NCBI GenBank assembly: GCA_003153935.1
Contig: PMCA01000004.1
Location: 19,933 to 83,932, forward strand
DNA length: 64,000 bases
DNA from: Elusimicrobiota bacterium
GTDB lineage: Bacteria; CAYTYR01; UBA6262
Direction: 5' to 3'
In this document: one piece after another, positions 33,518 through 49,332 of the stretch
Numbering within the stretch: the first letter of the stretch is position 1
Layout: each line of letters starts with the position of its first letter
Notes under the pieces: generated by a model
Databases searched by the model: none
Seen by the model: only the letters and a program-made list of their open reading frames with translations
Told to the model about the DNA's origin: nothing
Position numbers and translations under genes: made by a program

Positions 33518-36500
33518 ATGGGTAATTTCATCGAAAACTTAATTGATTTTTGCGCCAGGAATAAAATGGTCGTCTTGATACTGGTTGCCATGGCGGTTGT
33601 TGGCGGTATTTTCGCCATGAAAAACGTGTCCCTGGACGCTATCCCTGATCTTTCGGATACACAGGTGATCGTTTTTTCCCGCTGGGACCGGCCGCCCCAG
33701 GTGATAGAGGACCAGGTTACCTATCCAATCGTGGCCGCTTTGCTGGGCGCGCCTAATGTTAAAGATGTCCGCGGGTTCTCCGATTATGGTTTTTCCTACG
33801 TTTATGTGATCTTTGAAGACGGCACCGATGTTTACTGGGCCCGTTCCCGGGTGTTGGAATACCTGTCCAAAGTAATGCCCCAGTTGCCTCAGGGAGTACA
33901 AACAGAACTGGGTCCGGACGCTACCGGGGTGGGTTGGGTTTATGAATACGCATTGGTAGACGAGACAGGAAAACATTCTTTAGACGAGTTAACCACTTTC
34001 CAGAATTGGCACTTGAAGTACGCTTTGCAGTCCGTCAAGGGAGTAGCGGAAGTGGCCAGTGTCGGTGGTTTTACCAAACAATACCAGGTAGTTATAGATC
34101 CGAACGCGTTACATTCCTATAATATTTCCTTGAACGATGTAATAATGGATATCCAGAGATCCAACCAGGAAGCAGGCGCTCGCTTGCTGGATATATCCGG
34201 CAAAGAATATATGGTTACCATCCGCGGCTACCTGCAATCCCTGCAGGATATACAGGAAATAGTGATCAAAACCGGGACGAACGGAGTCCCAGTAAAGATT
34301 AAGGATGTAGCTACTGTACAATTAGGGCCGGATATCCGCCGGGGCGTGGCCGAGCTTGACGGCAAAGGCGAAGTAGTTGGCGGCATTGTAGTTATGCGTT
34401 ATAAGGAAAACGCGCTGAAGGTTATCGAAAGGATAAAACAAAAGCTGGCGGAGATACAATTGCCCGAAGGCGTTAAGTTGGTGGCCACTTACGATCGCTC
34501 GGATCTGATACAGCGGGCGGTAGCGACTTTAAAGAGCAAGCTTTTTGAGGAAATGCTGGTGGTGAGTATAGTCATCCTCATATTCCTGGTACATTTCCCT
34601 TCAGCCATGATCCCTATTATTACCCTGCCGATAGCCGTTATCATAGCCTTTATCCCGATGTATTTTATGGGGTTGACTTCCAATGTTATGAGCCTGGGAG
34701 GAATTGCCATCGCGGTCGGGGCCATGGTTGACGCGGCGATCGTTCTTGTGGAAAACGCCCATAAGAAGCTGACCCTTTGGGACGAAACAGGCCAACAGGG
34801 GAATTACCAGGAGGTATTGATCTCCTCAGCTAAAGAAGTGGGCCGGGCTTCTTTTTTCTCCCTATTGGTCATTGCCGTTGCTTTTTTGCCCATATTTACT
34901 TTGGAAGGGATCGAGGGCCGTTTATTTAAACCCTTAGCCTTTACCAAAACTTTCGCCATGTCCTTCGCGGCGATCCTCTCGATTACCCTGGCTCCGGCCA
35001 TTATGCTCCTGGTCATCCGCAAGAATAAAATCATATTTAAACCCCGGTGGTTATCTGCCCTGTTCAACAAGATCTTTATCGGTACCATACATTCCGAGGA
35101 TAAGCACCCGGTCAGCAGGGTGCTGTTCCGGTTGTATGAGCCGGTCGTGCATTACGTACTGAAAAATCCGAAAAAAGTAATAGGCATCGCGGTTATAGTT
35201 TTTCTGGTAACTATGCCGTTTTTCTTCAAGTTGGGGCACGAATTCATGCCGCCATTGAATGAGGGAACGATCTTATACATGCCAACCACGCCTCCGGGGA
35301 TATCGGTCACTGAAGCGACCAAGCTGCTGCAGGTACAGGATAAGGTCCTCAAAACCTTTCCGGAAGTTATCAGCGTATTCGGCAAGGCGGGCCGCGCCAA
35401 TACTTCCACTGACCCGGCGCCTTTTTCTATGATGGAAACCGTGGTGATGCTGAAGCCGCAGAATGAATGGCGGGGAGTAGCCAGGTGGTATTCTAAGATA
35501 ATCCCCGGATTTATGCAAGGTCCGTTCAAGTTGGTCTGGCCGGACAGGATGTCCTGGGATGAGCTGATCAAGGAAATGGACCAAAAATTGCAGATCCCGG
35601 GGCAGGTCAATGCCTGGACCATGCCGATCAAGGCCCGGATAGACATGCTTACCACTGGCGTGCGTACTCCCATAGGCATTAAGATCTACGGTGACGATCT
35701 GAAAGAGATCGAGACGATCGGCGCGGAGATAGAAGGTCTCCTGAGGCCGCTAAAAGGCACCAGGAGTATTTACTCGGAAAGAACCGCCGGAGGCTATTTC
35801 GTGAACTTCAACCTGAAGCGTGACGCGATCGCGCGGTACGGGTTGACCATAGCCGACGTGCAAATGACGCTGATGTCGGCGATAGGCGGAGAGAATATTA
35901 CCCAGACTATCGAAGGACGCGAGCGCTTCCCGGTCAGCATCCGCTATCCGCGTGAACTGCGCGATGACGTAGAGAAGATCAAAAAAACTTATGTTACCAG
36001 TGCCGGAGGTATCAGCATCCCCATCGCCGAGCTGGCGGAGATCACTTTACAGACCGGACCGTCAATGATCAGAGATGAGAACGGCCGTTTGGCCGGTTAT
36101 GTTTATATTGACGAAGCTGGTCGTGATATCGGCAGTTATGTTGATGAAGCCAAGAGGGTCCTTAAAGACAAGTTGACGGTGCCGGCCGGTTATTCCCTGG
36201 TATTCAGCGGCCAGTATGAATTAATGGAGCGGGTCAAAGAGCGGATGAAAGTAGTATTGCCGCTAACTATATTTATCATCTTCTTCCTGATCTACATGAA
36301 TACGCGCAGTTATGTTAAGACTTTCATTATCCTGCTGGCTGTGCCGTTTTCCCTGATCGGCGTGGTTTGGATACTGTACCTGCTGGGATACAATATGAGT
36401 ATCGGCGTCTGGACCGGTATAATCGCTTTACTGGGGGTGGACGCGGAGACCGGTATATTCATGCTCCTATATTTGGACCTGTCCTATGATGAAATGAAGA

Positions 36501-36775
36501 AAAAAGGGTTGCTCAAGACCCTGGATGACCTGAAGGAAGCAGTGATACATGGCGCGGTCAAGAGAGTCAGGCCGAAGATGATGACCGCTGCGGTATTGTT
36601 TGTCGGTTTGCTGCCGATAATGTGGGCGCAGACCCACGAGATCGGCGCTGACGTGATGAAGAGGATCGCCGCGCCCATGGTCGGCGGGATTTTCACCTCC
36701 TTCGCTATGGAGTTGATCGTTTACCCGGCGATATATTTCCTCTGGAAAAAGAAGGAATTGCGGCAGATGAAATAA
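33518..36775 (+). CDS. cusA: CusA-type Cu(I)/Ag(I) RND permease
   Basis: DAIPDLSD.QVI, VYWARSRVLEYL, EFMPPLNEG.ILYMP, DPAPFSMMET, RIDMLTTG, RVRPKMMT. Confidence 0.95.
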   Translation: MGNFIENLIDFCARNKMVVLILVAMAVVGGIFAMKNVSLDAIPDLSDTQVIVFSRWDRPPQVIEDQVTYPIVAALLGAPNVKDVRGFSDYGFSYVYVIFEDGTDVYWARSRVLEYLSKVMPQLPQGVQTELGPDATGVGWVYEYALVDETGKHSLDELTTFQNWHLKYALQSVKGVAEVASVGGFTKQYQVVIDPNALHSYNISLNDVIMDIQRSNQEAGARLLDISGKEYMVTIRGYLQSLQDIQEIVIKTGTNGVPVKIKDVATVQLGPDIRRGVAELDGKGEVVGGIVVMRYKENALKVIERIKQKLAEIQLPEGVKLVATYDRSDLIQRAVATLKSKLFEEMLVVSIVILIFLVHFPSAMIPIITLPIAVIIAFIPMYFMGLTSNVMSLGGIAIAVGAMVDAAIVLVENAHKKLTLWDETGQQGNYQEVLISSAKEVGRASFFSLLVIAVAFLPIFTLEGIEGRLFKPLAFTKTFAMSFAAILSITLAPAIMLLVIRKNKIIFKPRWLSALFNKIFIGTIHSEDKHPVSRVLFRLYEPVVHYVLKNPKKVIGIAVIVFLVTMPFFFKLGHEFMPPLNEGTILYMPTTPPGISVTEATKLLQVQDKVLKTFPEVISVFGKAGRANTSTDPAPFSMMETVVMLKPQNEWRGVARWYSKIIPGFMQGPFKLVWPDRMSWDELIKEMDQKLQIPGQVNAWTMPIKARIDMLTTGVRTPIGIKIYGDDLKEIETIGAEIEGLLRPLKGTRSIYSERTAGGYFVNFNLKRDAIARYGLTIADVQMTLMSAIGGENITQTIEGRERFPVSIRYPRELRDDVEKIKKTYVTSAGGISIPIAELAEITLQTGPSMIRDENGRLAGYVYIDEAGRDIGSYVDEAKRVLKDKLTVPAGYSLVFSGQYELMERVKERMKVVLPLTIFIIFFLIYMNTRSYVKTFIILLAVPFSLIGVVWILYLLGYNMSIGVWTGIIALLGVDAETGIFMLLYLDLSYDEMKKKGLLKTLDDLKEAVIHGAVKRVRPKMMTAAVLFVGLLPIMWAQTHEIGADVMKRIAAPMVGGIFTSFAMELIVYPAIYFLWKKKELRQMK

Positions 36776-36859
36776 GTCAATAAAAAGGGGAAAGCGCTAA
36801 TTTACTTGCCGCTCACACAGCTATATAATAAAATTACCAAACATTTAAGGAGGTAAGCG

Positions 36860-37258
36860 ATGAAGAAGCTAATGGCCCTGTTTTTATCAGTATTTATAGC
36901 AACAACAGTAATGGCCGCGACTAAGCCGGCACCTGTTGCCCCGGTTTTATCGGGCACTATGGTAAATGGCGTAAGAGTGATAACCGTAGCGGCCAAAAAA
37001 TATGAGTTCATTCCTAACCCCATAGTGGTAAATGTAGGGGAGAAGGTTTTGCTGAAGATCACCGCTACTGATGTCGATCATGGTATTGGCATAAAAGAGT
37101 TCAAGATCGAACAGAAATTACCCAAAGGTTCGGAGCAAGCGATAGGGTTTACCCCTGATAAAACAGGTACTTTCACTATCAACTGCACCGAGTGGTGCGG
37201 GCTGGGCCATATGGCGATGAAAGGCAAATTTATCGTACTTCCGGTCATAAAGAAGTAA
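36860..37258 (+). CDS. Exported cupredoxin with CuA-type ligand set
   Basis: Signal peptide; DVDHG...CTEWCGLGHMAM. Confidence 0.85.
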   Translation: MKKLMALFLSVFIATTVMAATKPAPVAPVLSGTMVNGVRVITVAAKKYEFIPNPIVVNVGEKVLLKITATDVDHGIGIKEFKIEQKLPKGSEQAIGFTPDKTGTFTINCTEWCGLGHMAMKGKFIVLPVIKK

Positions 37259-37264
37259 ATTGAG

Positions 37265-37296
37265 AAAAAGAGGGTACTTACGGGTATCCTCTTTTT
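37265..37296 (+). terminator. Intrinsic terminator
   Basis: AAAAAGAGGGTAC / GTATCCTCTTTTT. Confidence 0.8.
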
Positions 37297-37305
37297 AAGA
37301 AAATT

Positions 37306-37338
37306 ATAGTTGACAATATTAGTCATATATAGTATAAT
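37306..37338 (+). promoter_or_regulatory. Consensus promoter overlapped by a type-1 IscR-like box
   Basis: TTGACA (37310)-N17-TATAAT (37333); ATAGTTGACAATATTAGTCATATAT (37306-37330) resembles the E. coli type-1 motif ATASYYGACTRWWWYAGTCRRSTAT. Confidence 0.8.
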
Positions 37339-37344
37339 ATTTTT

Positions 37345-37752
37345 ATGCTAAAGATATCTACAAGGTGCCGCTATGGCATGATGGCCATGGCGGAGCTGGC
37401 AAAAAATTATAAAGGTGAGCCGCTGTCGGCCGGGGAAATGGTTCGCCGGCACCGTATTCCCAGGTTCTACCTGGAGCAGTTACTGGTAAAGCTGAGGCGG
37501 CACGGCTTGATCGAAAGCATCCGCGGTCCGCAGGGTGGCTTCAACTTGAAAAAGGATCCGGCCAAAATAACGATCGGGGAGATAATAAGCTCACTGGAAG
37601 GGCCACTGGACCTAGTATCCTGTGCCGGCCTGAACAAAGGTAAATCCTGCTGGAAGATCAATAGCTGCTTGACCAGATCGATATGGCTAGACCTAAATGA
37701 AGCGGTAAATAAAGTTTTGCAGAAGAAAACTCTGGCTGACCTGATAAAATAG
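37345..37752 (+). CDS. iscR: IscR-like Rrf2 regulator
   Basis: YLEQL...S.RGPQGG; three Cys (C..C..C); precedes cysteine desulfurase. Confidence 0.8.
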   Translation: MLKISTRCRYGMMAMAELAKNYKGEPLSAGEMVRRHRIPRFYLEQLLVKLRRHGLIESIRGPQGGFNLKKDPAKITIGEIISSLEGPLDLVSCAGLNKGKSCWKINSCLTRSIWLDLNEAVNKVLQKKTLADLIK

Positions 37753-37765
37753 AAACGAGGAAATC

Positions 37766-38941
37766 ATGGACATCAAGAAAAGATATTTTGACTATGCAGC
37801 TACTACGCCGATGCATCCGGAAGTAACTAAGGCTATGCAGCCGTTTTTGGAAGAGAAATTCGGCAACCCATCCAGCATCCATTCTTTCGGCCAAGAAGCC
37901 AAAGCGGCAATAACGGAAGCTCGGGATGTGATCGCCGCAACCATCAAAGCTAAGAGCGAAGAGATCGTCTTTACCAGCGGAGGCACGGAAGCGGACAATT
38001 TCGTCCTGGCCGGGGTGCTGGAAGCCATGGCGAAAAAAGGCAACCATATCATAACTGATACCGTAGAACATCACGCTATCCTGGAAACCTGCCGGTTCAT
38101 GGAAAAACATCGCGGCGCCAAGGTTACTTATATACCGGTAGATAAAACCGGTCTGGTAGACCCGCAGGACATAAAAAAAGCTATTACCAAAGAGACCGTG
38201 CTTATTTCCGTAATGCATGCCAATAATGAGATCGGCACTATAGAACCTATAGCGGAGATCGGTAAAATAGCGCGGGAGGCGGGCGTGTATTTCCATACCG
38301 ACGCCGTGCAAACCTTCGGCAGCCTGGATATCGACGTGGAAAAACTGAATGTGGACTTTCTCTCCGCCAGCGCCCATAAACTTTATGGCCCGAAAGGTAT
38401 CGGCCTGCTGTATGTGCGTAAGGGAGCGCGTATTTTGCCGCTTTTACATGGCGGTGAGCAGGAGAGAAGGCGCCGGGCCTCAACGGAGAACGTTCCGGGT
38501 ATAGTCGGTTTCAGCAAAGCGGTGCAGTTAGCGGAGCAGGAGCGCCAGGAACGCAACGAGCACCTGATAAAAATGCGCGATAAGTTGATCAAAGGGATAC
38601 TGGACAGCATCGAGGAGACGCAACTGAACGGTCATCCGCAGTTACGACTGCCTAATAACGTAAATGTGACCCCTAAATACGTAGAAGGGGAATCGATGCT
38701 CCTTAATCTGGACCTGGAAGGCATCGCCGCTTCAACCGGCTCCGCCTGTTCCAGCGGTTCGCTGGAGCCGTCGCATGTCTTAAAGGCGATAGGCATCAAC
38801 CCAGAGATAGCCCATTCCAGTCTGCGGTTCAGCCTGGGCCGGCTGAATACGGATGAGGATGTAGATTATCTGCTGGAAGTTTTACCGCGGATAGTGAAAA
38901 CTTTGCGGGAAATGTCCCCGTTGTATAAGAAGAAAAAATAG
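37766..38941 (+). CDS. iscS: Cysteine desulfurase
   Basis: YFDYAATTP, FTSGGTE, HTDAVQ, SAHKLYGPKG, STGSACSS. Confidence 0.96.
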   Translation: MDIKKRYFDYAATTPMHPEVTKAMQPFLEEKFGNPSSIHSFGQEAKAAITEARDVIAATIKAKSEEIVFTSGGTEADNFVLAGVLEAMAKKGNHIITDTVEHHAILETCRFMEKHRGAKVTYIPVDKTGLVDPQDIKKAITKETVLISVMHANNEIGTIEPIAEIGKIAREAGVYFHTDAVQTFGSLDIDVEKLNVDFLSASAHKLYGPKGIGLLYVRKGARILPLLHGGEQERRRRASTENVPGIVGFSKAVQLAEQERQERNEHLIKMRDKLIKGILDSIEETQLNGHPQLRLPNNVNVTPKYVEGESMLLNLDLEGIAASTGSACSSGSLEPSHVLKAIGINPEIAHSSLRFSLGRLNTDEDVDYLLEVLPRIVKTLREMSPLYKKKK

Positions 38942-38965
38942 GTTTGCAATGACAAAGGAGGATTT

Positions 38966-39193
38966 ATGAAAGAAAAAGTGAAAAAAAGCCTGGAAAAGAT
39001 AGCCAAGATGCTGGGCTCAGATGGCGGTAGCGTGGAGCTGGTAGAAATTGACGAGGCCAAAGGCTTAGTTAAAGTAAGATTACTGGGTGCCTGCCAGGGC
39101 TGTCCCATGAGCGCCATGACCTTGAAGAATGGTATCGAAAGGATACTGAAGGAAGATGTTCCGGAAGTTAAGACAGTCGAGTCCGTAGATTAA
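38966..39193 (+). CDS. Nfu/NifU-C Fe-S carrier
   Basis: DGG.VEL, GACQGCPMS..TLKNGIE. Confidence 0.92.
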   Translation: MKEKVKKSLEKIAKMLGSDGGSVELVEIDEAKGLVKVRLLGACQGCPMSAMTLKNGIERILKEDVPEVKTVESVD

Positions 39194-39232
39194 CGAAGGT
39201 AAACAATTGTTGAAGATCAGGAGGTGATCGCT

Positions 39233-39304
39233 ATGACAGCCAGAGTTTCCAAAAAGTATTTCTTGCGCCCGACCGCTCACTGCTGCGGCGGGAAATGTAG
39301 TTAG
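39233..39304 (+). CDS. Putative 23-aa Cys-rich peptide MTARVSKKYFLRPTAHCCGGKCS
   Basis: Below the ORF-track cutoff; AGGAGGTG SD (39219-39226) 6 nt before ATG. Confidence 0.6.
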   Translation: MTARVSKKYFLRPTAHCCGGKCS

Positions 39305-39329
39305 CCCCGAGCAGGGCGTTAAAAGGCTT

Positions 39330-39358
39330 ACCCGCTCCGACTTAACATCGGAGCGGGT
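39330..39358 (+). terminator. GC-rich hairpin (terminator/attenuator-like) before nadA
   Basis: ACCCGCTCCGA / TCGGAGCGGGT, 11-bp perfect stem; weak U tail. Confidence 0.55.
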
Positions 39359-39381
39359 CTCTATTCTAAAAAGGGGATAGC

Positions 39382-40305
39382 ATGCCCATACCGCGCTTAA
39401 ACAAAGAAATAAGGGAGATTGCCGCCAGAAAAGGGGCGGTCATATTGGCTCATAACTATCAATTGCCGGAAGTACAGGACGTGGCTGATTTTGTCGGCGA
39501 TTCGCTGGAGCTGAGCATCAAGGCCGGGGAAACTAAGGCGGAGATCATTATCTTTTGCGGCGTGAACTTCATGGCGGAAACCGCGGCGATAATTTCGCCG
39601 CAGAAAAAGGTGCTGATACCGGATTATACCGCCGGTTGCCCGATGGCCAACATGATCAACGCCGAGAATGTCCGGGAACTGAAAAGACAACATCCCGGGG
39701 CCAAGGTGGTATGTTATGTTAATTCGACCGCGGCGGTTAAAGCCGAAAGCGATATTTGCTGCACCAGCGCCAACGCGGTGAAAGTGGTTAATTCGCTGAA
39801 GGACACGGAAGAGATTATATTCATTCCCGATAAAAACCTGGGTAGTTACGTGCAGAGCAAAGTACCTAAGAAGAAGTTCATTATCTGGGAAGGTTTTTGC
39901 CCGACCCACGCCCGTATATTAAAGGACGATATCTACCGCGCCAAAGATAAACATTCGCAAGCCAAGGTCATGGTACATCCGGAGTGCCGGCCGGAAGTCA
40001 TAGCGCTGGCCGACCTGGTCGCTTCCACCAGCGGCATGAGCAAGTTCGCCCGGGAAACGGAAGCTAAAGAGATCATCATTGGCACGGAAGTAGGGATGTT
40101 ATACCGCCTGCAAAAAGAAAATCCGGATAAAAATTTCTATCCGGCCTCCTCCCAAGCTATCTGCCCTAATATGAAATTGACTACGCTTGATAAAATATTC
40201 TGGTCACTTCAGGACCTGGTTTACCCGGTAGTGGTGGAAGAACCCATCCGCAGCCGGGCTAAAATGGCCATTGAACGAATGATCGCCCTCTCCAAACAGG
40301 ATTGA
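39382..40305 (+). CDS. nadA: Quinolinate synthase
   Basis: ILAHNYQ, GDSLEL, FCGVNFMAE, AGCPMA, YVNS, CTSAN, HPEC, CPNMK. Confidence 0.96.
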   Translation: MPIPRLNKEIREIAARKGAVILAHNYQLPEVQDVADFVGDSLELSIKAGETKAEIIIFCGVNFMAETAAIISPQKKVLIPDYTAGCPMANMINAENVRELKRQHPGAKVVCYVNSTAAVKAESDICCTSANAVKVVNSLKDTEEIIFIPDKNLGSYVQSKVPKKKFIIWEGFCPTHARILKDDIYRAKDKHSQAKVMVHPECRPEVIALADLVASTSGMSKFARETEAKEIIIGTEVGMLYRLQKENPDKNFYPASSQAICPNMKLTTLDKIFWSLQDLVYPVVVEEPIRSRAKMAIERMIALSKQD

Positions 40306-40316
40306 ACCCATGGCCC

Positions 40317-40748
40317 TTAAAGCGCCTTGTCTTTCTGGCTATCAGTTATCTTTTCATAGATCAAAACCACTGCGATACAAGCCAACGGCGTTGCTACCAA
40401 CCCGGTCATCAACCAGGACAGGATCAACTTAGTATCCACGCTGGTATTATAGGTGATCAGCAATGGCGGCACCGTTATCGCCCATAAAAGAACCCCCAGG
40501 AAAAACCCTTTCACCACGCCTTTACCCGGAATGCCATGCTGCAGAACCGTGAACATCAAAGCGTATATCAAGCCGCTGGAAAAATTACCCAGCAAAGTTT
40601 GCACCAACCAGACATTGCTCAAGGGTTTTAACAACTCAGGTGTCTGCGCGTAAAAGCTTTTAAACAGGATCGTGAACAGGGCGTTGATAAAATAAGAAAC
40701 TGTCGCTACGACTATGCCGGCCAGCAGCCATTTCGCTATGTTCTTCAT
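40317..40748 (-). CDS. Small 4-TM membrane protein of unknown function, last gene of the pst run
   Basis: Four hydrophobic segments, KGFFLG; 4-nt overlap with phoU. Confidence 0.7.
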   Translation of the reverse strand: MKNIAKWLLAGIVVATVSYFINALFTILFKSFYAQTPELLKPLSNVWLVQTLLGNFSSGLIYALMFTVLQHGIPGKGVVKGFFLGVLLWAITVPPLLITYNTSVDTKLILSWLMTGLVATPLACIAVVLIYEKITDSQKDKAL

Positions 40749-41437
40749 TTACTTCCTCCGTTCTGTTTTTCATGCAGGATTTCCAGGTGGTGTTTAACTA
40801 CCTTACCTTCTACCATAAAAATGACATCTTCGCAAATGTTTGTTGTATGATCGCAGATTCTTTCCAAATGCCGGGCCACCAGTAACAGGGCTACGGCCCG
40901 AGGAGCAGTGGAGGGATCTTTGGCGATATAGTCATTGATCAATTCCGATTGGACCAGGTTGCGTAAATTATCAGCCTCAGAATCGCGGAGAATTACTTTC
41001 CTGGCTAATTCCACGTCCTTGCGCACGAAAGCGTCGATAGCTTCCTTGACCATGGTTTGGGCCAGGGCTGCCAGCTTGGGGATATCGATCAGGGGTTTCA
41101 ACTGGGGTTTGTCTGCTAGCTGCAAAACCCTCTGGGCGATATCTACAGCCAGATCGGCGATTCGTTCCAGGTCGGTGGAGATCTTCATAGCCATGGTTAC
41201 GAAACGCAGATCTATAGCCATGGGCTGGTGCAGTGCCAGCAGGTCCAGGCACTTCTCATCAATAGCCAGTTCTAGCTCGTCGATCTTTTTGTCATCGGTG
41301 ATAACTTGTTCAGCCTGCTCGGCGCTGCGGGCTTTCAAGGCTTCTACCGATTTCAGGATCGACTCCTCGGTCAATCCGCCCATGCGCAGTATTTCCTTGT
41401 TCAGATCAGCCAGTTCTTCATCAAAATGTCTTTGCAT
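40745..41437 (-). CDS. phoU: Phosphate signalling protein PhoU
   Basis: QPMAIDLR, DLERIAD, LERICDH..NI.E. Confidence 0.95.
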   Translation of the reverse strand: MQRHFDEELADLNKEILRMGGLTEESILKSVEALKARSAEQAEQVITDDKKIDELELAIDEKCLDLLALHQPMAIDLRFVTMAMKISTDLERIADLAVDIAQRVLQLADKPQLKPLIDIPKLAALAQTMVKEAIDAFVRKDVELARKVILRDSEADNLRNLVQSELINDYIAKDPSTAPRAVALLLVARHLERICDHTTNICEDVIFMVEGKVVKHHLEILHEKQNGGSK

Positions 41438-41455: not shown

Positions 41456-42208
41456 TTATCCGAATCGTCCGGTCAAATAGTCTTCCGTGCGCGAGTCCTT
41501 CGGGCTGGTGAATATCTGGTTGGTTTCGCCGAACTCCACCAGCTCACCCAGCAGAAAATAACCTGTATACTCCGATACCCGCGCGGCTTGCTGCATATTA
41601 TGCGTCACGATGATTATGGTATATTGTTTCTTGAGTTCGTACATCAGGTCTTCGATCTTGGCCGTGGACATAGGGTCCAGGGCGGAGCAGGGCTCATCCA
41701 TCAGCAGGACCTCGGGTTCAACGACCGCTAAGCGCGCGATACACAGCCGCTGCTGCTGCTCACCGGAAAGAGTCAGGGCGTTTTGATCCAGCTTATCCTT
41801 GACCTCGTCCCACAGATGCACCGATTCCAAACTCCACTGCAATTTCTGTTCCATAATTTTTTTATCCAGGATACCATGGACCCGTAAACCGTAAACAACA
41901 TTATCATAAATGCTTAAAGGAAAGGGATTGGGTCTCTGGAAGACCATGCCCACCTTTTTGCGCAGGGCCAGCAGGTCAACGTCACTACCATAGATATCGT
42001 TACCGCTTATCTTTACCGAACCGCTGATACGGACGTCATCGATCAGGTCGTTCATGCGGTTAAGCGTGCGCAAAAAAGTGGATTTGCCGCAGCCGGAAGG
42101 CCCGATCAGGGCAGTGATCTTCTGCTTCTCTATCCTCAGGGTAATTTCCTTCAAAGCCTGGAAATTACCGTAAAAGAGGTTTAGTTTGTTTACTTCAATA
42201 ATGCTCAT
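41456..42208 (-). CDS. pstB: Phosphate ABC ATPase with altered signature (LSGEQ)
   Basis: [47 protein letters not shown]. Confidence 0.93.
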
Positions 42209-42966
42209 CCAAACCGTCCTACTATATAATCATTGGTACGCTGGTCAACCGGCGCGGTGAAGATCTTTTCCGTCTGGCCTATCTCGATCATCTCCCCGCT
42301 TAAGAAAAAAGCGGTCCGGTCAGCTACGCGCGCGGCCTGTTTGGTGTTATTAGTCACCAGAATGATCGTATATTGTTTCTTTAATTCGCGTAAGGATTCT
42401 TCTATCTTCATGGTAGAAATTGGGTCCAAACCGGAACAAGGTTCGTCCAATAAAATATAATCAGGACGCAAAGCCAGGATCCGAGCCACGCATAATCTTT
42501 GCTGCTGGCCTCCGGATAACTTTAAGGCGCTGGAATCCAATCTGTCCTTTACCTCCTCCCATAAAGTGGTCTGTTTGAGGCAATCAGCCACGAGTTCATT
42601 GAGCTTTCTCCTGCTATGAACACCGGCCATCTTGGGACCAAAGGCCACGTTCTCATAGATGGAGCGGGGCAGGGGCACTGGCGTGGCGAAAACTATGCCA
42701 AGTTTACGTCGTAACTCTACGACGCTCATGTCCGGCGCGTAAATGTCTTTCCCGTCTATTTTCAGGGTGCCTTCCACCCGGGACCCGGGAACTAGGTCGT
42801 TAAGCCGGTTCAAGGAGCGCAGGAAAGTGGATTTGCCGCTGCCGGCTGGCCCAATGATACCCAGTATCTCGTTCCGGAAGACCTGCAGGTTTATTTTTTT
42901 TAGGGTCTGCAAAGGGCCGAAAAAATGGCTGAAATCCCTGGATTCAATAGCTATGTTTGAAGTCAT
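42205..42966 (-). CDS. pstB: Phosphate ABC ATPase with degenerate Q- and H-loops
   Basis: [46 protein letters not shown]. Confidence 0.9.
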
Positions 42967-42977
42967 TTAACCGTTCC

Positions 42978-43814
42978 TCAGGAATATTTCTTCATGAACT
43001 TGTGCATTAAACGGTAAGCGGTGATGTTTATTATCAGGATGGCGATTATCAATACCGCTGCCGTGCCGTAAGCGTTAGGCATGGAGATGCCTTCACGAGC
43101 CAAAATATAGAAGTGGACGGCCATGGTCCGGGAAGACGAAAAGATCGAAGTCGGTATGCGCAAAGCGCTGCCGGCCGTAAAGATCACCGCGGCGGTTTCA
43201 CTGATACTGCGGCCGACACTGAGAATTACCCCCGTAACGATACCCGGCAAGGCGCTGGGCAGAACCACTTTGGTTACGGTCTGCCATTTGGTTCCCCCGA
43301 GTGAAAAACTTACTTCCCGCAGGTTGTAGGGGACTGATTTAAGGGCCTCTTCACTAGTCCGGATGATCGTTGGCAATATCATAAAAGCCAGGGTTAAACT
43401 GCCGCTCAGTATGGACCAGCCGAATTTCAGTTTGGTGACGAACAGGATGAAACCGAACAAACCGAAAATTATTGAAGGAATTCCAGCCAGGCATTCCGAA
43501 CCGAAACGAATTACCCTGGTTATTTTGCTCTCCAAGGTATATTCGGTGAGGTAGATGGCCGTGCCCACTCCCAGTGGCGTGGCTATCAAAATGGCCCCGA
43601 TAGTTAAGGCGATCGTGCCGATAATAGTGGAATAAATACCGCCGCTTTTTCCCATATCGGTCGGGTTGGTGGTCAGGAACTGGTAGTTAAGCACCGGTAA
43701 GCCGTTTTTGAGGATGAAAAATATTATATAGAATAGGATAAATACGGTAATGGCGGTAAACAGCCACAGGATGGATTGTACTACTCTTTGTTCTAGACGC
43801 GGGTTAACGTACAT
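42978..43814 (-). CDS. pstA: Phosphate ABC permease PstA
   Basis: AIYLTEY, LAGIPSIIFGLFG, SEEAL..VP, GR.ISETA. Confidence 0.93.
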   Translation of the reverse strand: MYVNPRLEQRVVQSILWLFTAITVFILFYIIFFILKNGLPVLNYQFLTTNPTDMGKSGGIYSTIIGTIALTIGAILIATPLGVGTAIYLTEYTLESKITRVIRFGSECLAGIPSIIFGLFGFILFVTKLKFGWSILSGSLTLAFMILPTIIRTSEEALKSVPYNLREVSFSLGGTKWQTVTKVVLPSALPGIVTGVILSVGRSISETAAVIFTAGSALRIPTSIFSSSRTMAVHFYILAREGISMPNAYGTAAVLIIAILIINITAYRLMHKFMKKYS

Positions 43815-43816
43815 TA

Positions 43817-44677
43817 TTATTTAGTCCTCTGCTTGGCAGCGGTAGCATTGGCGATCGTGTTCAGGATCATAATGATAATGAATAAAATAACCCCGGTAGC
43901 AAAAAGCGCCTGGCGGTGCTCGCCGCTGGCGTAGCCCATTTCCAGGGCGATATTAGAAGTCAGGGTCCTGACCGGATCCAGTACGGAATGGGGGATACTG
44001 ACAGCGTTCCCGGCGATCATGATCACCGCCATGGTCTCGCCTATAGCCCGGCCCATACCCAGGATGATACTGGCGATTATCCCTGATTTAGCCGATGGCA
44101 GGGTGACCATTTTGGTGGTTTGCCATTTAGTAGCTCCCAAGGCGATAGATCCCTCCCGGTAACTGCGCGGTACTGCCTGCAAAGAGTCAATGGAAATGCT
44201 GATGATCGTGGGCAGGATCATAATACCAAGGATGATCGAAGCGGCCAGGACGGAAAGACCGGAACCGCCAAGGTGTTCCCGGATAAAAGGTACCAGGATA
44301 ATAACGCCCATGAAACCGTAGACCACGGAGGGGATACCGGCTAAGAGCTCGATGATGGGTTTGATGATCTGGCGCAGGCGTAAACTGGAGAATTCGGTCA
44401 GGAAGATCGCGCAAGCCAGGCCAAAAGGGATGCCGATTATCAAGGAACCGGCGGTTACCGCCAGCGAACCTATGATCATTGGCAATAAACCGAAACTTTG
44501 TTCGGTAGGATACCAGTCCAGGCCGAAAAGGAACTTATTAACGCCGTATTTGAACATGATCGGCATTCCCTCTTTAAAGATAAAAAGGGTGATGATAGCC
44601 AGGATGGAAATAGCGGAAAGGGCTATCATTAATAAGGCCAGCTGGATCAGTTTTTCGTTTCTCTCCAGAGTAGTCAT
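43817..44677 (-). CDS. pstC: Phosphate ABC permease PstC
   Basis: ELLAGIPSVVYG, GRAIGETMAV, RTLTSNIALEMGYA. Confidence 0.94.
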   Translation of the reverse strand: MTTLERNEKLIQLALLMIALSAISILAIITLFIFKEGMPIMFKYGVNKFLFGLDWYPTEQSFGLLPMIIGSLAVTAGSLIIGIPFGLACAIFLTEFSSLRLRQIIKPIIELLAGIPSVVYGFMGVIILVPFIREHLGGSGLSVLAASIILGIMILPTIISISIDSLQAVPRSYREGSIALGATKWQTTKMVTLPSAKSGIIASIILGMGRAIGETMAVIMIAGNAVSIPHSVLDPVRTLTSNIALEMGYASGEHRQALFATGVILFIIIMILNTIANATAAKQRTK

Positions 44678-45465
44678 TTGGCGGCGATCAAACCTTCTTT
44701 TCTTATTAATTCCTGCCCTTCAGCTGAAAGGACAAAATCAATAAATTCCTTAGTTTCACCGGCTGGTTCATCCTTGGTTACGAACAAGAAAGGCCGGACC
44801 AGTTTATATTTTTTAGTAATTATATTTTCATCGGTGGCCTTGACGCCGTCCAGGTTCATGGCTTTGACCTTTTCGCTGACCAGTCCCAGTGAGATATAGC
44901 CGATAGCATAAGGATCACCGGAAACGATCTCCCGGACCGTGCCGTTAGAATCTTCGACGATGCAACCCCTGAAGATCCGAACCTTTTTCATCACTAGTTC
45001 CTGGAAAGCGCCGCGGGTGCCCGAACCTTCTTCTCGTGTGACCACGTCGATATTTTTATTCTGGCCGCCCAGCTCTTCCCAGTTGCGTATTTTTCCGGCA
45101 AAAATCTGTTTAACCTGTTCGATGCTAAGATTATTGATTAAATTACTAGGGTGCACAATGATCGCTAAACCGTCACGGGCGACAACAATCTCATGTAGAA
45201 CTTTCTCTTCCGGTTTGAGTTCTCGGCTGGAGGTGCCGATGTCAGCCGCGCCGCTTAAGGCGGCCTGGATGCCGGCGCTGGAGCCGCCGCCCTGGACATT
45301 GACTACGCGCCCAGGATGTTCCTCCATATAGACTTCAGACCACTTATCGGCAAAGGGCTGGACGCTGGTGGACCCGGCTACGGTGATACCTTTCTGGCTG
45401 GCATTGCGCCCGCAGCCAACCAGGAAAAGCAGGCATAAAAAAAAGACAAGCAGTTTGCGTTTCAT
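44674..45465 (-). CDS. pstS: Phosphate-binding lipoprotein PstS
   Basis: Lipobox LVGC; GSTSV, GGGSSAG, SSR, REEGSGTR. Confidence 0.93.
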   Translation of the reverse strand: MKRKLLVFFLCLLFLVGCGRNASQKGITVAGSTSVQPFADKWSEVYMEEHPGRVVNVQGGGSSAGIQAALSGAADIGTSSRELKPEEKVLHEIVVARDGLAIIVHPSNLINNLSIEQVKQIFAGKIRNWEELGGQNKNIDVVTREEGSGTRGAFQELVMKKVRIFRGCIVEDSNGTVREIVSGDPYAIGYISLGLVSEKVKAMNLDGVKATDENIITKKYKLVRPFLFVTKDEPAGETKEFIDFVLSAEGQELIRKEGLIAAK

Positions 45466-45505: not shown

Positions 45506-45901
45506 TTATTTAATTTCTTTGATCAGAGTCAATACTTTTTGTTCAATTTCATCCCTGATCGGTCTTATTTTTTCCAAGGGCTGGCCCTTAGGGTCGGCCA
45601 GGGCCCAATTGATCATTTTGGCGCCGGGAATAAAGGGACAGGTATCACCGCAGCCCATGGTAATCGCATAATCGATCTTGAGATTTATGAACTTTGACAG
45701 TTCCTTGGGCCGGGTTTGGCCTAAATCGATGTTTTTTTCTTTCATAGCTTCAACCACTACCGGGTTTATCTGGGTGGCCGGTTTGGTCCCCGCGCTATAG
45801 GCAGTAAGCTTGTCTGCGCCGTGGAATTTGGCGAAGCCCTCTGCCATCTGGCTGCGGCCGGCGTTCTCGGTGCAAATGAAAAGAAGCGTTTTCTGGGTCA
45901 T
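45506..45901 (-). CDS. arsC: Arsenate reductase, LMW-PTP fold
   Basis: [26 protein letters not shown]...DP, IRDEI. Confidence 0.88.
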
Positions 45902-46659
45902 CCGAACCTCCCGGTTATGTAGTCTTCTGTCTGTTTTTTTGCCGGATTGGTGAATATCTTTTCCGTTTTATCAAATTCGATCAATTCTCCCAGCAGGAAG
46001 AAGCCGGTGTAATCGGAAATACGCGCGGCTTGCTGCATATTATGGGTGACTATGGCGATGGTATATTTTTCTTTAAGCTCATTGATTAATTCTTCGATCT
46101 TGGCGGTGGAGATGGGGTCCAGGGCTGAGCAGGGTTCATCGAACAGTATCACTTCGGGCTCTATAGCCAGGGCCCGGGCGATGCATAATCTTTGCTGTTG
46201 CCCACCTGACAATTCGGAAGCGTTAGCGTCCAGCCGGTCCTGTACTTCTTCCCACAGGGCGGAATTTTTCAGGCTGGTTTCCACCCGGTCAATGATCTCT
46301 CCTTTATTGTTAATACCATTGATGCGCAGGCCGTAGGCAATATTGTCAAATATCGATTTGGGAAAGGGATTGGATTTCTGGAAGACCATGCCGATCTTGC
46401 GGCGTATCTCCACCACGTCAACTTCCGGCGCGTAAATATCCTGCCCGTCCAGGAGGATCGCGCCTTCGACCCGACTGCCTATTATTATATCGTTCATCCG
46501 GTTCAAAATGCGAATAAAAGTGGATTTACCGCAACCGGAAGGGCCGATGACCGCCGTCACCTTATTGCTTTCAATGCCCATGTTAATGTCTTTCAGCGCC
46601 AGGTTCTGCCCATAATAGAAATTAAGGTTTTTTACTTCCATGCGGTTTGTGGTTACCAC
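45898..46659 (-). CDS. pstB: Phosphate ABC ATPase (canonical motifs)
   Basis: [33 protein letters not shown]. Confidence 0.95.
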
Positions 46660-47516
46660 TTCTTTTTCCTCCTGTAATAGTTGCGGATAACGATGGCTAT
46701 CATATTGATTCCCAGGACCAGGACTATCAAGACCAGGGAGGCGCCATAGGCGATGGCTTTTTGTTCTTTGGGATGACTGCCCTCGGTCATTAAAGCGTAT
46801 ATATGATAAGGAAGGGCCATAACTTCACTGAAAACCGAATTGGGCAGTTTCATGGTGTAAAAAGTCGCCGCGGTGAATAATATCGGAGCAGTTTCACCGG
46901 CCACCCGGCCAACCCCGAGGATGGCCCCGGTAATGATGCCGCCGATGGCGTTAGGCAGGACTATCTTGTAAATGGTCTGCCACTTGGTTGCGCCCAAAGC
47001 CAGTGACGCTTCGCGGAAACCGTTTGGCACTAACAGTAAGGCTTCTTCACTGGCGCGAATAATTACAGGCAGGATCATAATGCCAAGTGTTAAACTTCCG
47101 GAAAGTATGGAAACGCCGAATTTACAATAATTGACGAATAAAGCCAAGCCGAATAAACCAAAAACTATGGATGGTACGCTGGCCAGGTTACTGATGCCGA
47201 TGCGGATCAGGCGGATGACCTTGCCCTGGACGGCGTATTCGGTCATGTAGATAGCGGCCATGATACCTAACGGCAGAGCAAAAAGGATGGCCCCCATGGT
47301 TAAGTAGAAAGTGCCAAGGATGGCGGGAAAGATCCCGCCGGAAGTCATGCCATTCTCCGGCATTTTGGTCAGGAATCCCCAGTTGATAACCTTAATGCCC
47401 CGCACAAATAAAAAATAAAGCAGAATGCCCAATATTATAAAGATTATAAGCGCTGAAGTCCTTAGCGCCAGGAATCCCATTTGTTGTTTAATTTCCCGCC
47501 ATTTGCGGTTATCCAT
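46653..47516 (-). CDS. pstA: Phosphate ABC permease PstA
   Basis: [36 protein letters not shown]. Confidence 0.94.
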
Positions 47517-48400
47517 TACACGATCCTTTTCCTGAACCGCTGGGCGATCAGGTCAGCGATAATATTAAAAATAAGGGTCAGGATGAAAAGCACGATGGCG
47601 ATAGCGAAAAGAGAGTAATAGTGATCACTGCCGATAGCAGTCTCACCCATCTCCGCGGCGATGGTAGCGGTCATGGTCCTGACCGGCTGCAGGAAGCCGT
47701 GGGGAATGACGGCGGCACCACCGCCGACCATGAGCACGGTCATGGTTTCGCCGATGGCCCGGCCCATACCCAGTATCACCGCTGAACTTATCCCCGAGAA
47801 AGCGGCCGGGACGGTTACTTTGATGATAGTTTCCCATTTATTAGCGCCCAGGGCGTAGGAGGCTTCTTTGAAACCCCGCGGAACCGCGGAAATACAGTCT
47901 TCGGAAATGCTGGTGATAGTAGGAATAGCCATTATTCCAAGGAGAATGCTGGCATTTAAAGCGTTAAGACCGGTGGGTAATCCAAAAGCCGATTGCAGGA
48001 AAGGAGCGATCACCACCATGCCGAAGAAACCCAGTACTACGGACGGGAAACCGGCCAGGACCTCGACCGTAGGTTTCAGTATCTCCTTCATACGCGGGGA
48101 GGCGATCTCCGATATATAAATAGCGGCTCCGAGTCCTAACGGGACTGCCACAATGATTGAGCCGATAGTGACCCATAAAGATCCCATGATCAGCGGGAAA
48201 GCGCCGAACTCAGGCGGATCGAAGGTAGGGTACCAGTGCCGGCCGAATAAAAAATCCGCTACCTTGATATCCTTAAAGAGAGGCAGACCCTCTTTGAACA
48301 AAACAATGACGATTCCCAATAGGAAAATATTCGAGAGGAAGGCAAAGGCCAGGAAAAACCATTCTAATAATTTTTCTTTTGTCTTATTTAAGATCATCAT
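47516..48400 (-). CDS. pstC: Phosphate ABC permease PstC
   Basis: EVLAGFPSVVLG, GRAIGETM, RTMTATIAAEMGE. Confidence 0.94.
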   Translation of the reverse strand: MMILNKTKEKLLEWFFLAFAFLSNIFLLGIVIVLFKEGLPLFKDIKVADFLFGRHWYPTFDPPEFGAFPLIMGSLWVTIGSIIVAVPLGLGAAIYISEIASPRMKEILKPTVEVLAGFPSVVLGFFGMVVIAPFLQSAFGLPTGLNALNASILLGIMAIPTITSISEDCISAVPRGFKEASYALGANKWETIIKVTVPAAFSGISSAVILGMGRAIGETMTVLMVGGGAAVIPHGFLQPVRTMTATIAAEMGETAIGSDHYYSLFAIAIVLFILTLIFNIIADLIAQRFRKRIV

Positions 48401-48516: not shown

Positions 48517-49332
48517 TTACTTTACCGCGACAAAACCCTGGTCTTCGACCATTTTCTGGCCTTCCGGGCTCATAATATAGTCGATAAATTGCTTAGCTAA
48601 GCCCTTAGGATCACCGTTGGTATACATATATAACGGCCGGCTGATAGGATACTTACCGCTGATGACAGTTTCTTTATTCGCGGTTATGCCGTTAACTACC
48701 AGAGCTTTTATCTCATCGGTCACGTAACCTAAACCAACATAACCGATCGCGCCGGGGGTGCTGGCTACAGTGGTCAATACAGCCTGGTTTGAGGCCAGCA
48801 TCAGGGCATCTTCCCGTACTTTTGACCCTTTCAGCACTTTTTCGTTGAAAACTTCAAAGGTGCCGCTGGAGGAATCTCGTGATACCACTACTAATGAACC
48901 GCCGGATCCACCCGCATCGCTCCATTTAAGTATCTCACCCGAGTATATTTTCTTCAGGGTGTCCAGGTTGATGCTGTTAATGTTATTAGCTTTATTCACG
49001 ATCACGCAAATACCGTCTTTGGCAATGATGTTAGCGAACATGGTCACGCCTTTGCCCCGGGCGGTAGCGATCTCTTTGGCTTTCGCCGCGCGGGAAGAAT
49101 CCCCGATATCCACGGTTCCATCAACGATCGCCTGGATGCCGACTCCCGAACCTCCGCCTCTGACGCTCACATCAACAGACGGATTCGCTTTCATGAAATC
49201 TTCCGCCCCTTTCTGGGCGATCGGTAGTACGGTGGTCGAGCCGCTTAAGGTCAGTTTCTGACCGGCTGTTAAATTGCCGGCCAGCAGGCCCACCAGGCCT
49301 AACAAACATATTGTTTTTATGATTTTCTTCAT
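48517..49332 (-). CDS. pstS: Periplasmic phosphate-binding protein PstS
   Basis: GSTTVLP, GGGSGVG, SSR, SRDSSSGT, YPISRPLY. Confidence 0.93.
   Translation of the reverse strand: MKKIIKTICLLGLVGLLAGNLTAGQKLTLSGSTTVLPIAQKGAEDFMKANPSVDVSVRGGGSGVGIQAIVDGTVDIGDSSRAAKAKEIATARGKGVTMFANIIAKDGICVIVNKANNINSINLDTLKKIYSGEILKWSDAGGSGGSLVVVSRDSSSGTFEVFNEKVLKGSKVREDALMLASNQAVLTTVASTPGAIGYVGLGYVTDEIKALVVNGITANKETVISGKYPISRPLYMYTNGDPKGLAKQFIDYIMSPEGQKMVEDQGFVAVK

Follow-up and report, generated by a model that had tools for sequence, protein, structure and literature searches.

The textbook system for high-affinity phosphate import is Pst, whose nucleotide-binding subunit PstB is taken to work as a symmetric homodimer. 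In ATP-binding cassette (ABC) proteins each adenosine triphosphate (ATP) site joins Walker A, Walker B, the A-loop, the Q-loop and the H-loop from one domain to the signature motif of the other (PMC7756269; articles are cited here from excerpts of their text). The structure of the canonical PstSCAB of Escherichia coli follows this arrangement, with ATP held between Walker A/B of one PstB and the LSGGQ signature of the other (PDB 9k3x, 9k3y, 9k3s; PMC12976172). Degenerate sites are frequent in exporters (PMC3971661, PMC7756269). Here we analyzed a stretch of 64,000 nucleotides (the window) from contig PMCA01000004.1 of an Elusimicrobiota bacterium, in which a pst operon with the same parts as the E. 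coli system, PstS, PstC, PstA and PstB together with PhoU, contains two pstB genes side by side, pstB1 and pstB2. We argue that this pstSCAB1B2-phoU operon probably encodes a Pst importer with an obligate PstB1-PstB2 heterodimer, in which one ATP site is of consensus type and the other degenerate.

The motifs of the three PstB proteins of the window were compared by alignment, and the codon coordinates were checked (Table 1). PstB1 and PstB2 share 51% identity. PstB1 has an intact LSGGQ signature and retains the Lys, Ser and Thr of Walker A, the aromatic residue of the A-loop and the Asp-Glu of Walker B. Its Q-loop reads VFATP, with Ala94 replacing Gln, and its H-loop reads VTNN, with Asn206 replacing His. 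The D-loop is also altered, from SALD to SGLD, a change that did not figure in an earlier sequence-only reading of the window. In PstB2, Walker A is canonical, Gln91, His203 and the Walker B Asp-Glu are kept, and the signature is LSGEQ, with Glu150 at its fourth position. The third protein, PstB3, is canonical at every motif position compared. The sequence-only reading had attributed to PstB1 a Gln-to-Ala and a His-to-Asn replacement with an intact signature, and to PstB2 intact Walker, Q and H motifs with LSGEQ, both of which the alignment and the codon coordinates bear out; its description of the third PstB as canonical likewise agrees with the alignment. PstB2 and PstB3 score above the cut-off of the NCBIfam PstB family, TIGR00972 (343.2 bits), and PstB1 falls 0.1 bit below it; neither this score nor the overlap of the pstB1 stop with the pstB2 start figured in the sequence-only reading. 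TIGR00972 is nevertheless by far the best family for PstB1, which lies in a pstSCA-B operon context and whose best match among solved structures is E. coli PstB (PDB 9k3x; E = 3.6e-77, residues 6-253 aligned).

The composite-site rule on which the sequence-only reading relied is supported by PMC7756269 and, for E. coli PstB, by PMC12976172. With this geometry the three changes noted in that reading fall in one and the same site, made of the Walker, Q and H side of PstB1 and the signature of PstB2. The other site of the heterodimer, which we call site 2, would pair Walker A/B, Gln91 and His203 from PstB2 with the LSGGQ from PstB1; every consensus residue would be present, and site 2 most likely hydrolyzes the ATP that drives transport. 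Site 1 would comprise Walker A/B, Ala94 and Asn206 of PstB1, with the LSGEQ of PstB2 facing the Walker A site of PstB1. Three γ-phosphate or catalytic contacts would be gone from it, and an acidic side chain would stand where the second signature Gly would approach the γ-phosphate. Hydrolysis at site 1 is thus expected to be slow or nil. An acidic residue at this Gly is inactivating, as in the G551D form of CFTR. The degenerate signature of yeast Pdr5, LNVEQ, also has Glu at position 4 (PMC7756269). Since the nucleotide-binding residues are kept (Lys, Ser and Thr in Walker A, Asp-Glu in Walker B and an aromatic residue in the A-loop), site 1 would still be able to hold a nucleotide, and it might act as a nucleotide-held hinge, as in degenerate-site exporters. 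The stoichiometry would then be one ATP per transport cycle. Since the two PstBs are different and carry complementary fixed deviations, the two ATP sites would not be equivalent. A PstB1 homodimer would have two sites devoid of Gln and His, and a PstB2 homodimer two LSGEQ sites; the heterodimer is proposed to be obligate because it is the only combination with one all-consensus site.

The motif changes in both PstBs are fixed rather than sporadic. Each of the 120 near homologues listed for PstB1 (at least 74% identity) has Ala in the Q-loop and the sequence LSGGQQQR, and the H-loop reads VTNN in 119 of them and VINN in one. Similarly, Glu occupies position 4 of the signature in all 120 listed near homologues of PstB2 (at least 75% identity), 112 of which have LSGEQ and none of which departs from the canonical Q-loop, H-loop or Walker A. 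More distant PstB1-like and PstB2-like proteins were found among the best 150 matches in a search of 1.84 billion cluster representatives. The conservation of the residues throughout both sets of 120 excludes sporadic change and sequencing error, which the sequence-only reading had named as possible refutations. A wider form of this objection holds that errors of sequencing or assembly gave rise to the deviations or that pstB1 is a duplicate in decay, in line with the draft state of the genome (36 contigs) and with the garbled Walker A of the upstream protein in one relative, L035. We regard it as scarcely credible, since the near homologues that share the residues come from many sources and both frames are open and full length. 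Moreover, the mean divergence of the upstream and downstream partners across related pairs is alike (0.387 and 0.351), which argues that PstB1 is under constraint like PstB2. Four metatranscriptome libraries of wetland or peat origin contain short contigs that agree without mismatch with parts of pstS, pstC, pstA, pstB1, pstB2 and phoU, and one of them spans the pstB1/pstB2 junction (42169-42319). Neither strand nor level can be read from these RNA-library contigs and DNA carry-over is possible, so that they give no more than a weak hint that the operon is expressed; gaps in their coverage carry no meaning.

We then looked at co-variation across tandem pstB pairs. The loci came from three sources: the 80 genome loci most similar to PstB1; 80 metagenome loci retrieved with search patterns generic to PstB, which therefore represent a general PstB sample and gave 8 further adjacent pairs; and the best 40 non-family matches in a sample of 401 genomes, covering the bacterium's own small lineage and then spread over the bacterial domain. 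Together they contained 54 tandem pairs, the window included, 51 of which are of the degenerate type. At the Q-loop position of the upstream protein these 51 pairs have Ala (47), Asp (3) or Ser (1) and never Gln. The upstream protein has Asn in the H-loop in 50 pairs and a D-loop reading SGLD in 49 and SSLD in two; it keeps xSGGQ and the Walker B Asp-Glu in all 51, and the Walker A Lys in 50. Among the 48 downstream partners that are complete, Gln and His are invariably present and Walker A is canonical in 47. Their signature is altered at position 3 or 4 in 47 of 48 and takes 19 forms, of which LSGEQ occurs 21 times and others include LSLEQ, LPLDQ, LTLEQ, LPTEQ, LSEEM and LPPYQ. In all 48 complete pairs the reciprocal site is of consensus type, and the deviations all lie in the same composite site. 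Co-variation of the altered signature with a partner lacking the Q-loop Gln, the check proposed in the sequence-only reading, thus holds in 47 of 48 complete pairs. The 19 forms show that the same site has changed repeatedly, despite the related genomes in the tally. Position 4 is occupied by Glu in 38 partners, Asp in 6, Tyr in 2 and Gly in 2; this acidic preference (44 of 48) suggests that the residue may have a positive role and that the signature is not simply decaying. The 131 non-tandem PstBs include 122 that are canonical throughout, not one of them with an altered signature. Two PstBs of the upstream type stand alone, but only because a contig ends there.

These data bear on the proposal that a PstB2 homodimer energizes transport and that PstB1 serves as a pseudo-ATPase with an accessory or regulatory role, for instance as a partner of PhoU in phosphate signaling, instead of making up half of the motor in stoichiometric amount. 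Such a division of labor has a parallel in Enterococcus faecalis, in which phosphate import depends on the downstream pstB2 and an excess of PstB2 can substitute for the upstream, accessory pstB1 (PMC12096839), and the single PhoU of the genome analyzed here adjoins the pair. However, both sites of a PstB2 homodimer would have the altered signature. The alteration is fixed in the listed near homologues and is found only beside a gene of the PstB1 type: 47 of 48 partners have it, as opposed to none of the 122 canonical single PstBs. The preservation of xSGGQ in all 51 upstream proteins would make sense only if it completes an active site. The parallel itself is imperfect, as both E. faecalis PstBs are canonical in their motifs according to the excerpts of PMC12096839, and the only Firmicute-type tandem pair in our sample, L067, has canonical motifs and falls outside both degenerate clades of the tree. 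Lastly, a role of PstB1 with PhoU sits poorly with the finding that a phoU gene comes after the pair in only 9 of the 24 related genome loci. We therefore consider a PstB2 homodimer rather improbable.

The relationships of the proteins are in keeping with a PstB1-PstB2 pair that has been inherited as a unit. In the tree, the 40 proteins whose D-loop reads SGLD together make up a single clade (support 0.999), and 30 of 32 altered-signature partners form another (support 0.945), nested among canonical PstBs. Distances among upstream partners correlate with those among downstream partners (r = 0.918, 46 pairs; the maximum of 1000 shuffles was 0.275). The gene order pstS-C-A-B1-B2, with pstS as gene 1, is found in 24 of 24 related genome loci, as far as the flanks reach. 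In two genomes that are each 99% complete, G333 and G181, the pair provides the sole PstBs, and so it does in the genomes of L011 and L032. PhoU adjacency was rejected as a defining feature of the pair, given that phoU comes next in 9 of the 24 loci and is encoded on the other strand in 3 of these. Descent shared with the tandem pstB genes of Firmicutes was also rejected on account of the position of L067, the one such pair sampled, the E. faecalis and Bacillus subtilis pairs not being in the tree.

The design is not restricted to close relatives. A PstB1 orthologue is present in 4 of 6 other genomes of the bacterium's own family (79-84% identity), and the broad bacterial sample revealed the design in at least 21 of about 390 other genomes, belonging to 16 families. 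By the depositors' own labels, the close loci are from Elusimicrobia, Aminicenantes, Actinomycetota and Armatimonadota.

Some loci depart from the usual arrangement. In genome G093 (locus L209, G093:C78:32200-35100) the pair is split, and the partner, with the signature LSLEQ, lies 1.77 kilobases downstream. The inserted segment holds two open reading frames (ORFs), 1197-1847 and 1844-2701, namely a DNA methyltransferase-like gene with a DPPF motif and a second ORF, and it looks like a restriction-modification module. In the metagenome locus L124 a PstB1-type gene, with Gln replaced by Ala and His kept, ends a pstSCA-B operon; on the opposite strand, one on each side, are a canonical PstB and a PstB whose signature is LSIGE. 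The pair may here be unlinked or rearranged. In a set of loci labeled Aminicenantes (L014, L016, L017, L019-L025, L027-L029 and L035), the D-loop region of the downstream protein reads SALDL instead of SALDP and the Walker A of the upstream protein reads GPARSGKST, with Arg at position four; these are further asymmetric changes near the dimer center.

Several observations weigh against a heterodimer with one degenerate site. The Walker B catalytic Glu, whose loss is described as a hallmark of degenerate sites (PMC7544095), is kept in PstB1, as in all 51 upstream proteins, and site 1 may for this reason still hydrolyze ATP, at least weakly. Replacement of the H-loop His by Asn or Gln in the active site of ABCC1 gave wild-type-like transport (PMC7756269), so the His-to-Asn change alone does not prove inactivity. 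Two pairs deviate from the rule, L026, in which the downstream signature LTGGQ is nearly canonical, and L133, in which the upstream His is kept and the partner has LSLGQ. The pair tallies count related genomes, and the events behind them are not independent. Co-inheritance is expected of adjacent genes in any case and does not prove contact between the proteins. Finally, two of the genomes with no PstBs besides the pair, those of L011 and L032, are of unstated completeness. A predicted complex of PstB1 and PstB2 with 2 ATP and 2 Mg gave scores of 0.59, 0.56 and 0.59, as compared with 0.41 for one control with an unrelated protein, and was used neither for nor against any interpretation.

The retention of Walker A Lys and Walker B Asp-Glu across the upstream proteins is also what would be expected of a heterodimer in which both sites are competent, the substitutions merely tuning kinetics or the coupling to PstC and PstA. 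The tolerance of ABCC1 to Asn in the H-loop is compatible with this idea, as is the fact that the Q-loop contacts the membrane subunits (PMC7756269). Yet in 47 of 48 pairs one site has three γ-phosphate or catalytic contacts altered together while the other has all of them intact, and the drift of the signature to forms such as LPPYQ, LPLDQ and LSEEM resembles released constraint, apart from the acidic preference at position 4. Competence of both sites appears unlikely, though not negligibly so.

The acidic preference can also be read in another way, with site 1 as a purpose-built regulatory pocket. The acidic residue at position 4 would replace or repel the γ-phosphate, such that the site closes on adenosine diphosphate or stays half open and reports the adenylate or phosphate state; site 1 would then gate the catalytic site and the output of PhoU/PhoR signaling. 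We hold this to be unlikely. One sub-branch of the SGLD clade is relevant to it. In five metagenome loci (L091, L098, L103, L129 and L150; e.g., L129:1666-2433), a member of this sub-branch is the sole pstB of a pstC-pstA-pstB-phoU operon, and in L098 and L129 phoU comes directly after it. These proteins have Asp or Glu in the Q-loop and keep the His (VPHN or APHN) and LSGGQ. Those of L103, L129 and L150 are in addition without the Lys of Walker A (GPANSGITT) and without the catalytic Glu (Asp-Arg), and their homodimers would contain no competent ATP site. This single-PstB branch supports the idea that the lineage explores non-motor roles, and if the regulatory-pocket proposal is true, the Pst complexes of L103, L129 and L150 would be able to sense but not to pump. 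The L129 protein had no match in the 401 genomes at E <= 1e-92.

The ORF list and a family search placed two pst operons in series on the minus strand of the window, between 40317 and 50417 (Table 1). Their subunits share 38-50% identity, and the genome contains three PstB-family genes and one PhoU match in all. The overlap of the pstB1 stop with the pstB2 start is compatible with translational coupling of the two genes. Operon A, which encodes PstB3, lies directly upstream of operon B, which encodes the pair, and this two-operon layout was also seen in L009 and L010. The ORF that heads operon A possibly encodes an outer-membrane porin. A homologue of the small membrane protein at the end of operon B follows phoU only in L009 and L010 among the related loci, and it is uncertain whether this protein is part of the Pst system. 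The neighboring genes at 33518-40305, named by reading their translations, look ordinary; they comprise an RND-type efflux pump (1085 residues), a small cupredoxin-like protein, an Rrf2-type regulator, and cysteine desulfurase-like and quinolinate synthase-like genes.

Table 1. Genes of the two pst operons and sequence motifs of PstB1 and PstB2, with their positions in the window
Feature	Position	Strand	Remarks
Operon A, ORF of 355 residues	49350-50417	-	without family match
Operon A, pstS	48517-49332	-	
Operon A, pstC	47516-48400	-	
Operon A, pstA	46653-47516	-	
Operon A, pstB (PstB3)	45898-46659	-	canonical; TIGR00972, 409.8 bits
Operon A, small arsenate-reductase / low-molecular-weight phosphatase-like gene	45506-45901	-	overlaps pstB3
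Operon B, pstS, phosphate-binding protein	44674-45465	-	TIGR02136, 250.6 bits (cut-off 206.6)
Operon B, pstC, membrane subunit	43817-44677	-	49% identity to operon A PstC; position kept in related loci
Operon B, pstA, membrane subunit	42978-43814	-	50% identity to operon A PstA; position kept in related loci
Operon B, pstB1, 253 residues	42205-42966	-	TIGR00972, 343.1 bits (cut-off 343.2); motifs below
PstB1 Walker A	42826-42852	-	Lys, Ser, Thr kept
PstB1 Ala94 for Gln, in Q-loop VFATP	42685-42687	-	alignment and codon check
PstB1 signature LSGGQ	42505-42519	-	intact; alignment and codon check
PstB1 Walker B Asp-Glu	42442-42447	-	kept
PstB1 D-loop SGLD	42424-42435	-	canonical SALD
PstB1 Asn206 for His, in H-loop VTNN	42349-42351	-	
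pstB1 stop / pstB2 start overlap	42205-42208	-	ATGA
Operon B, pstB2, 250 residues	41456-42208	-	TIGR00972, 396.7 bits (cut-off 343.2); motifs below
PstB2 Q-loop Gln91	41936-41938	-	kept
PstB2 signature LSGEQ	41756-41770	-	Glu150 at 41759-41761
PstB2 H-loop His203	41600-41602	-	kept
Operon B, phoU	40745-41437	-	TIGR02135, 218.2 bits
Operon B, small membrane protein, 143 residues	40317-40748	-	overlaps phoU end; no family match above cut-off

Comparison with described systems sets the PstB1-PstB2 pair apart in several respects. A full-text literature search, which mostly did not reach subscription journals, found no publication on a degenerate site in PstB, and the E. faecalis work, the one genetic study of tandem pstB genes, states, in the excerpts used, that tandem pstB paralogues had not been studied before (PMC12096839). 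The one-degenerate-site design is known from exporters, and we found no description of it for phosphate importers. It also has consequences for annotation, as PstB1-type proteins score at or below the curated PstB threshold and both subunits currently bear the same name.

With respect to the E. coli PstB homodimer, the window pair consists of two different PstBs with complementary fixed deviations. The Firmicute tandem genes, pstB1 and pstB2 of E. faecalis (PMC12096839) and those for PstBA and PstBB of B. subtilis (PMC11466899), are likewise adjacent in one pst operon. The two E. faecalis proteins are not equivalent, the downstream one being essential, but unlike those of the window they do not depart from the canonical motifs (PMC12096839). 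Among importers, one degenerate site was inferred from sequence in the fused ATPases RbsA and NupO of B. subtilis; their domains are fused, they belong to another importer class, and the second Walker A Lys is missing, as are the Walker B acidic residues in NupO (PMC11466899). Both are unrelated to the Pst family.

A further analogy is with exporters and channels, TM287/288, TAP1/2 (ABCB2/B3), CFTR (ABCC7), ABCC1 and Pdr5, which likewise have one consensus and one degenerate site, the deviations lying on the H-loop/Walker side of one domain and in the other domain's signature, as here (PMC7756269). The window pair shares with this class the non-identical domains and the mapping of all deviations to one site, but not the loss of the Walker B Glu. 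These exporters have another membrane fold and have usually lost the catalytic Glu of Walker B (PMC7756269), whereas the window system is a binding-protein-dependent importer that keeps this Glu and has lost the Q-loop Gln. If the heterodimer proposed here is confirmed, it would offer a natural system in which to study the number of ATP used per substrate in binding-protein-dependent importers and the role of a non-catalytic site, and a design with one active and one degenerate site would not be special to exporters.

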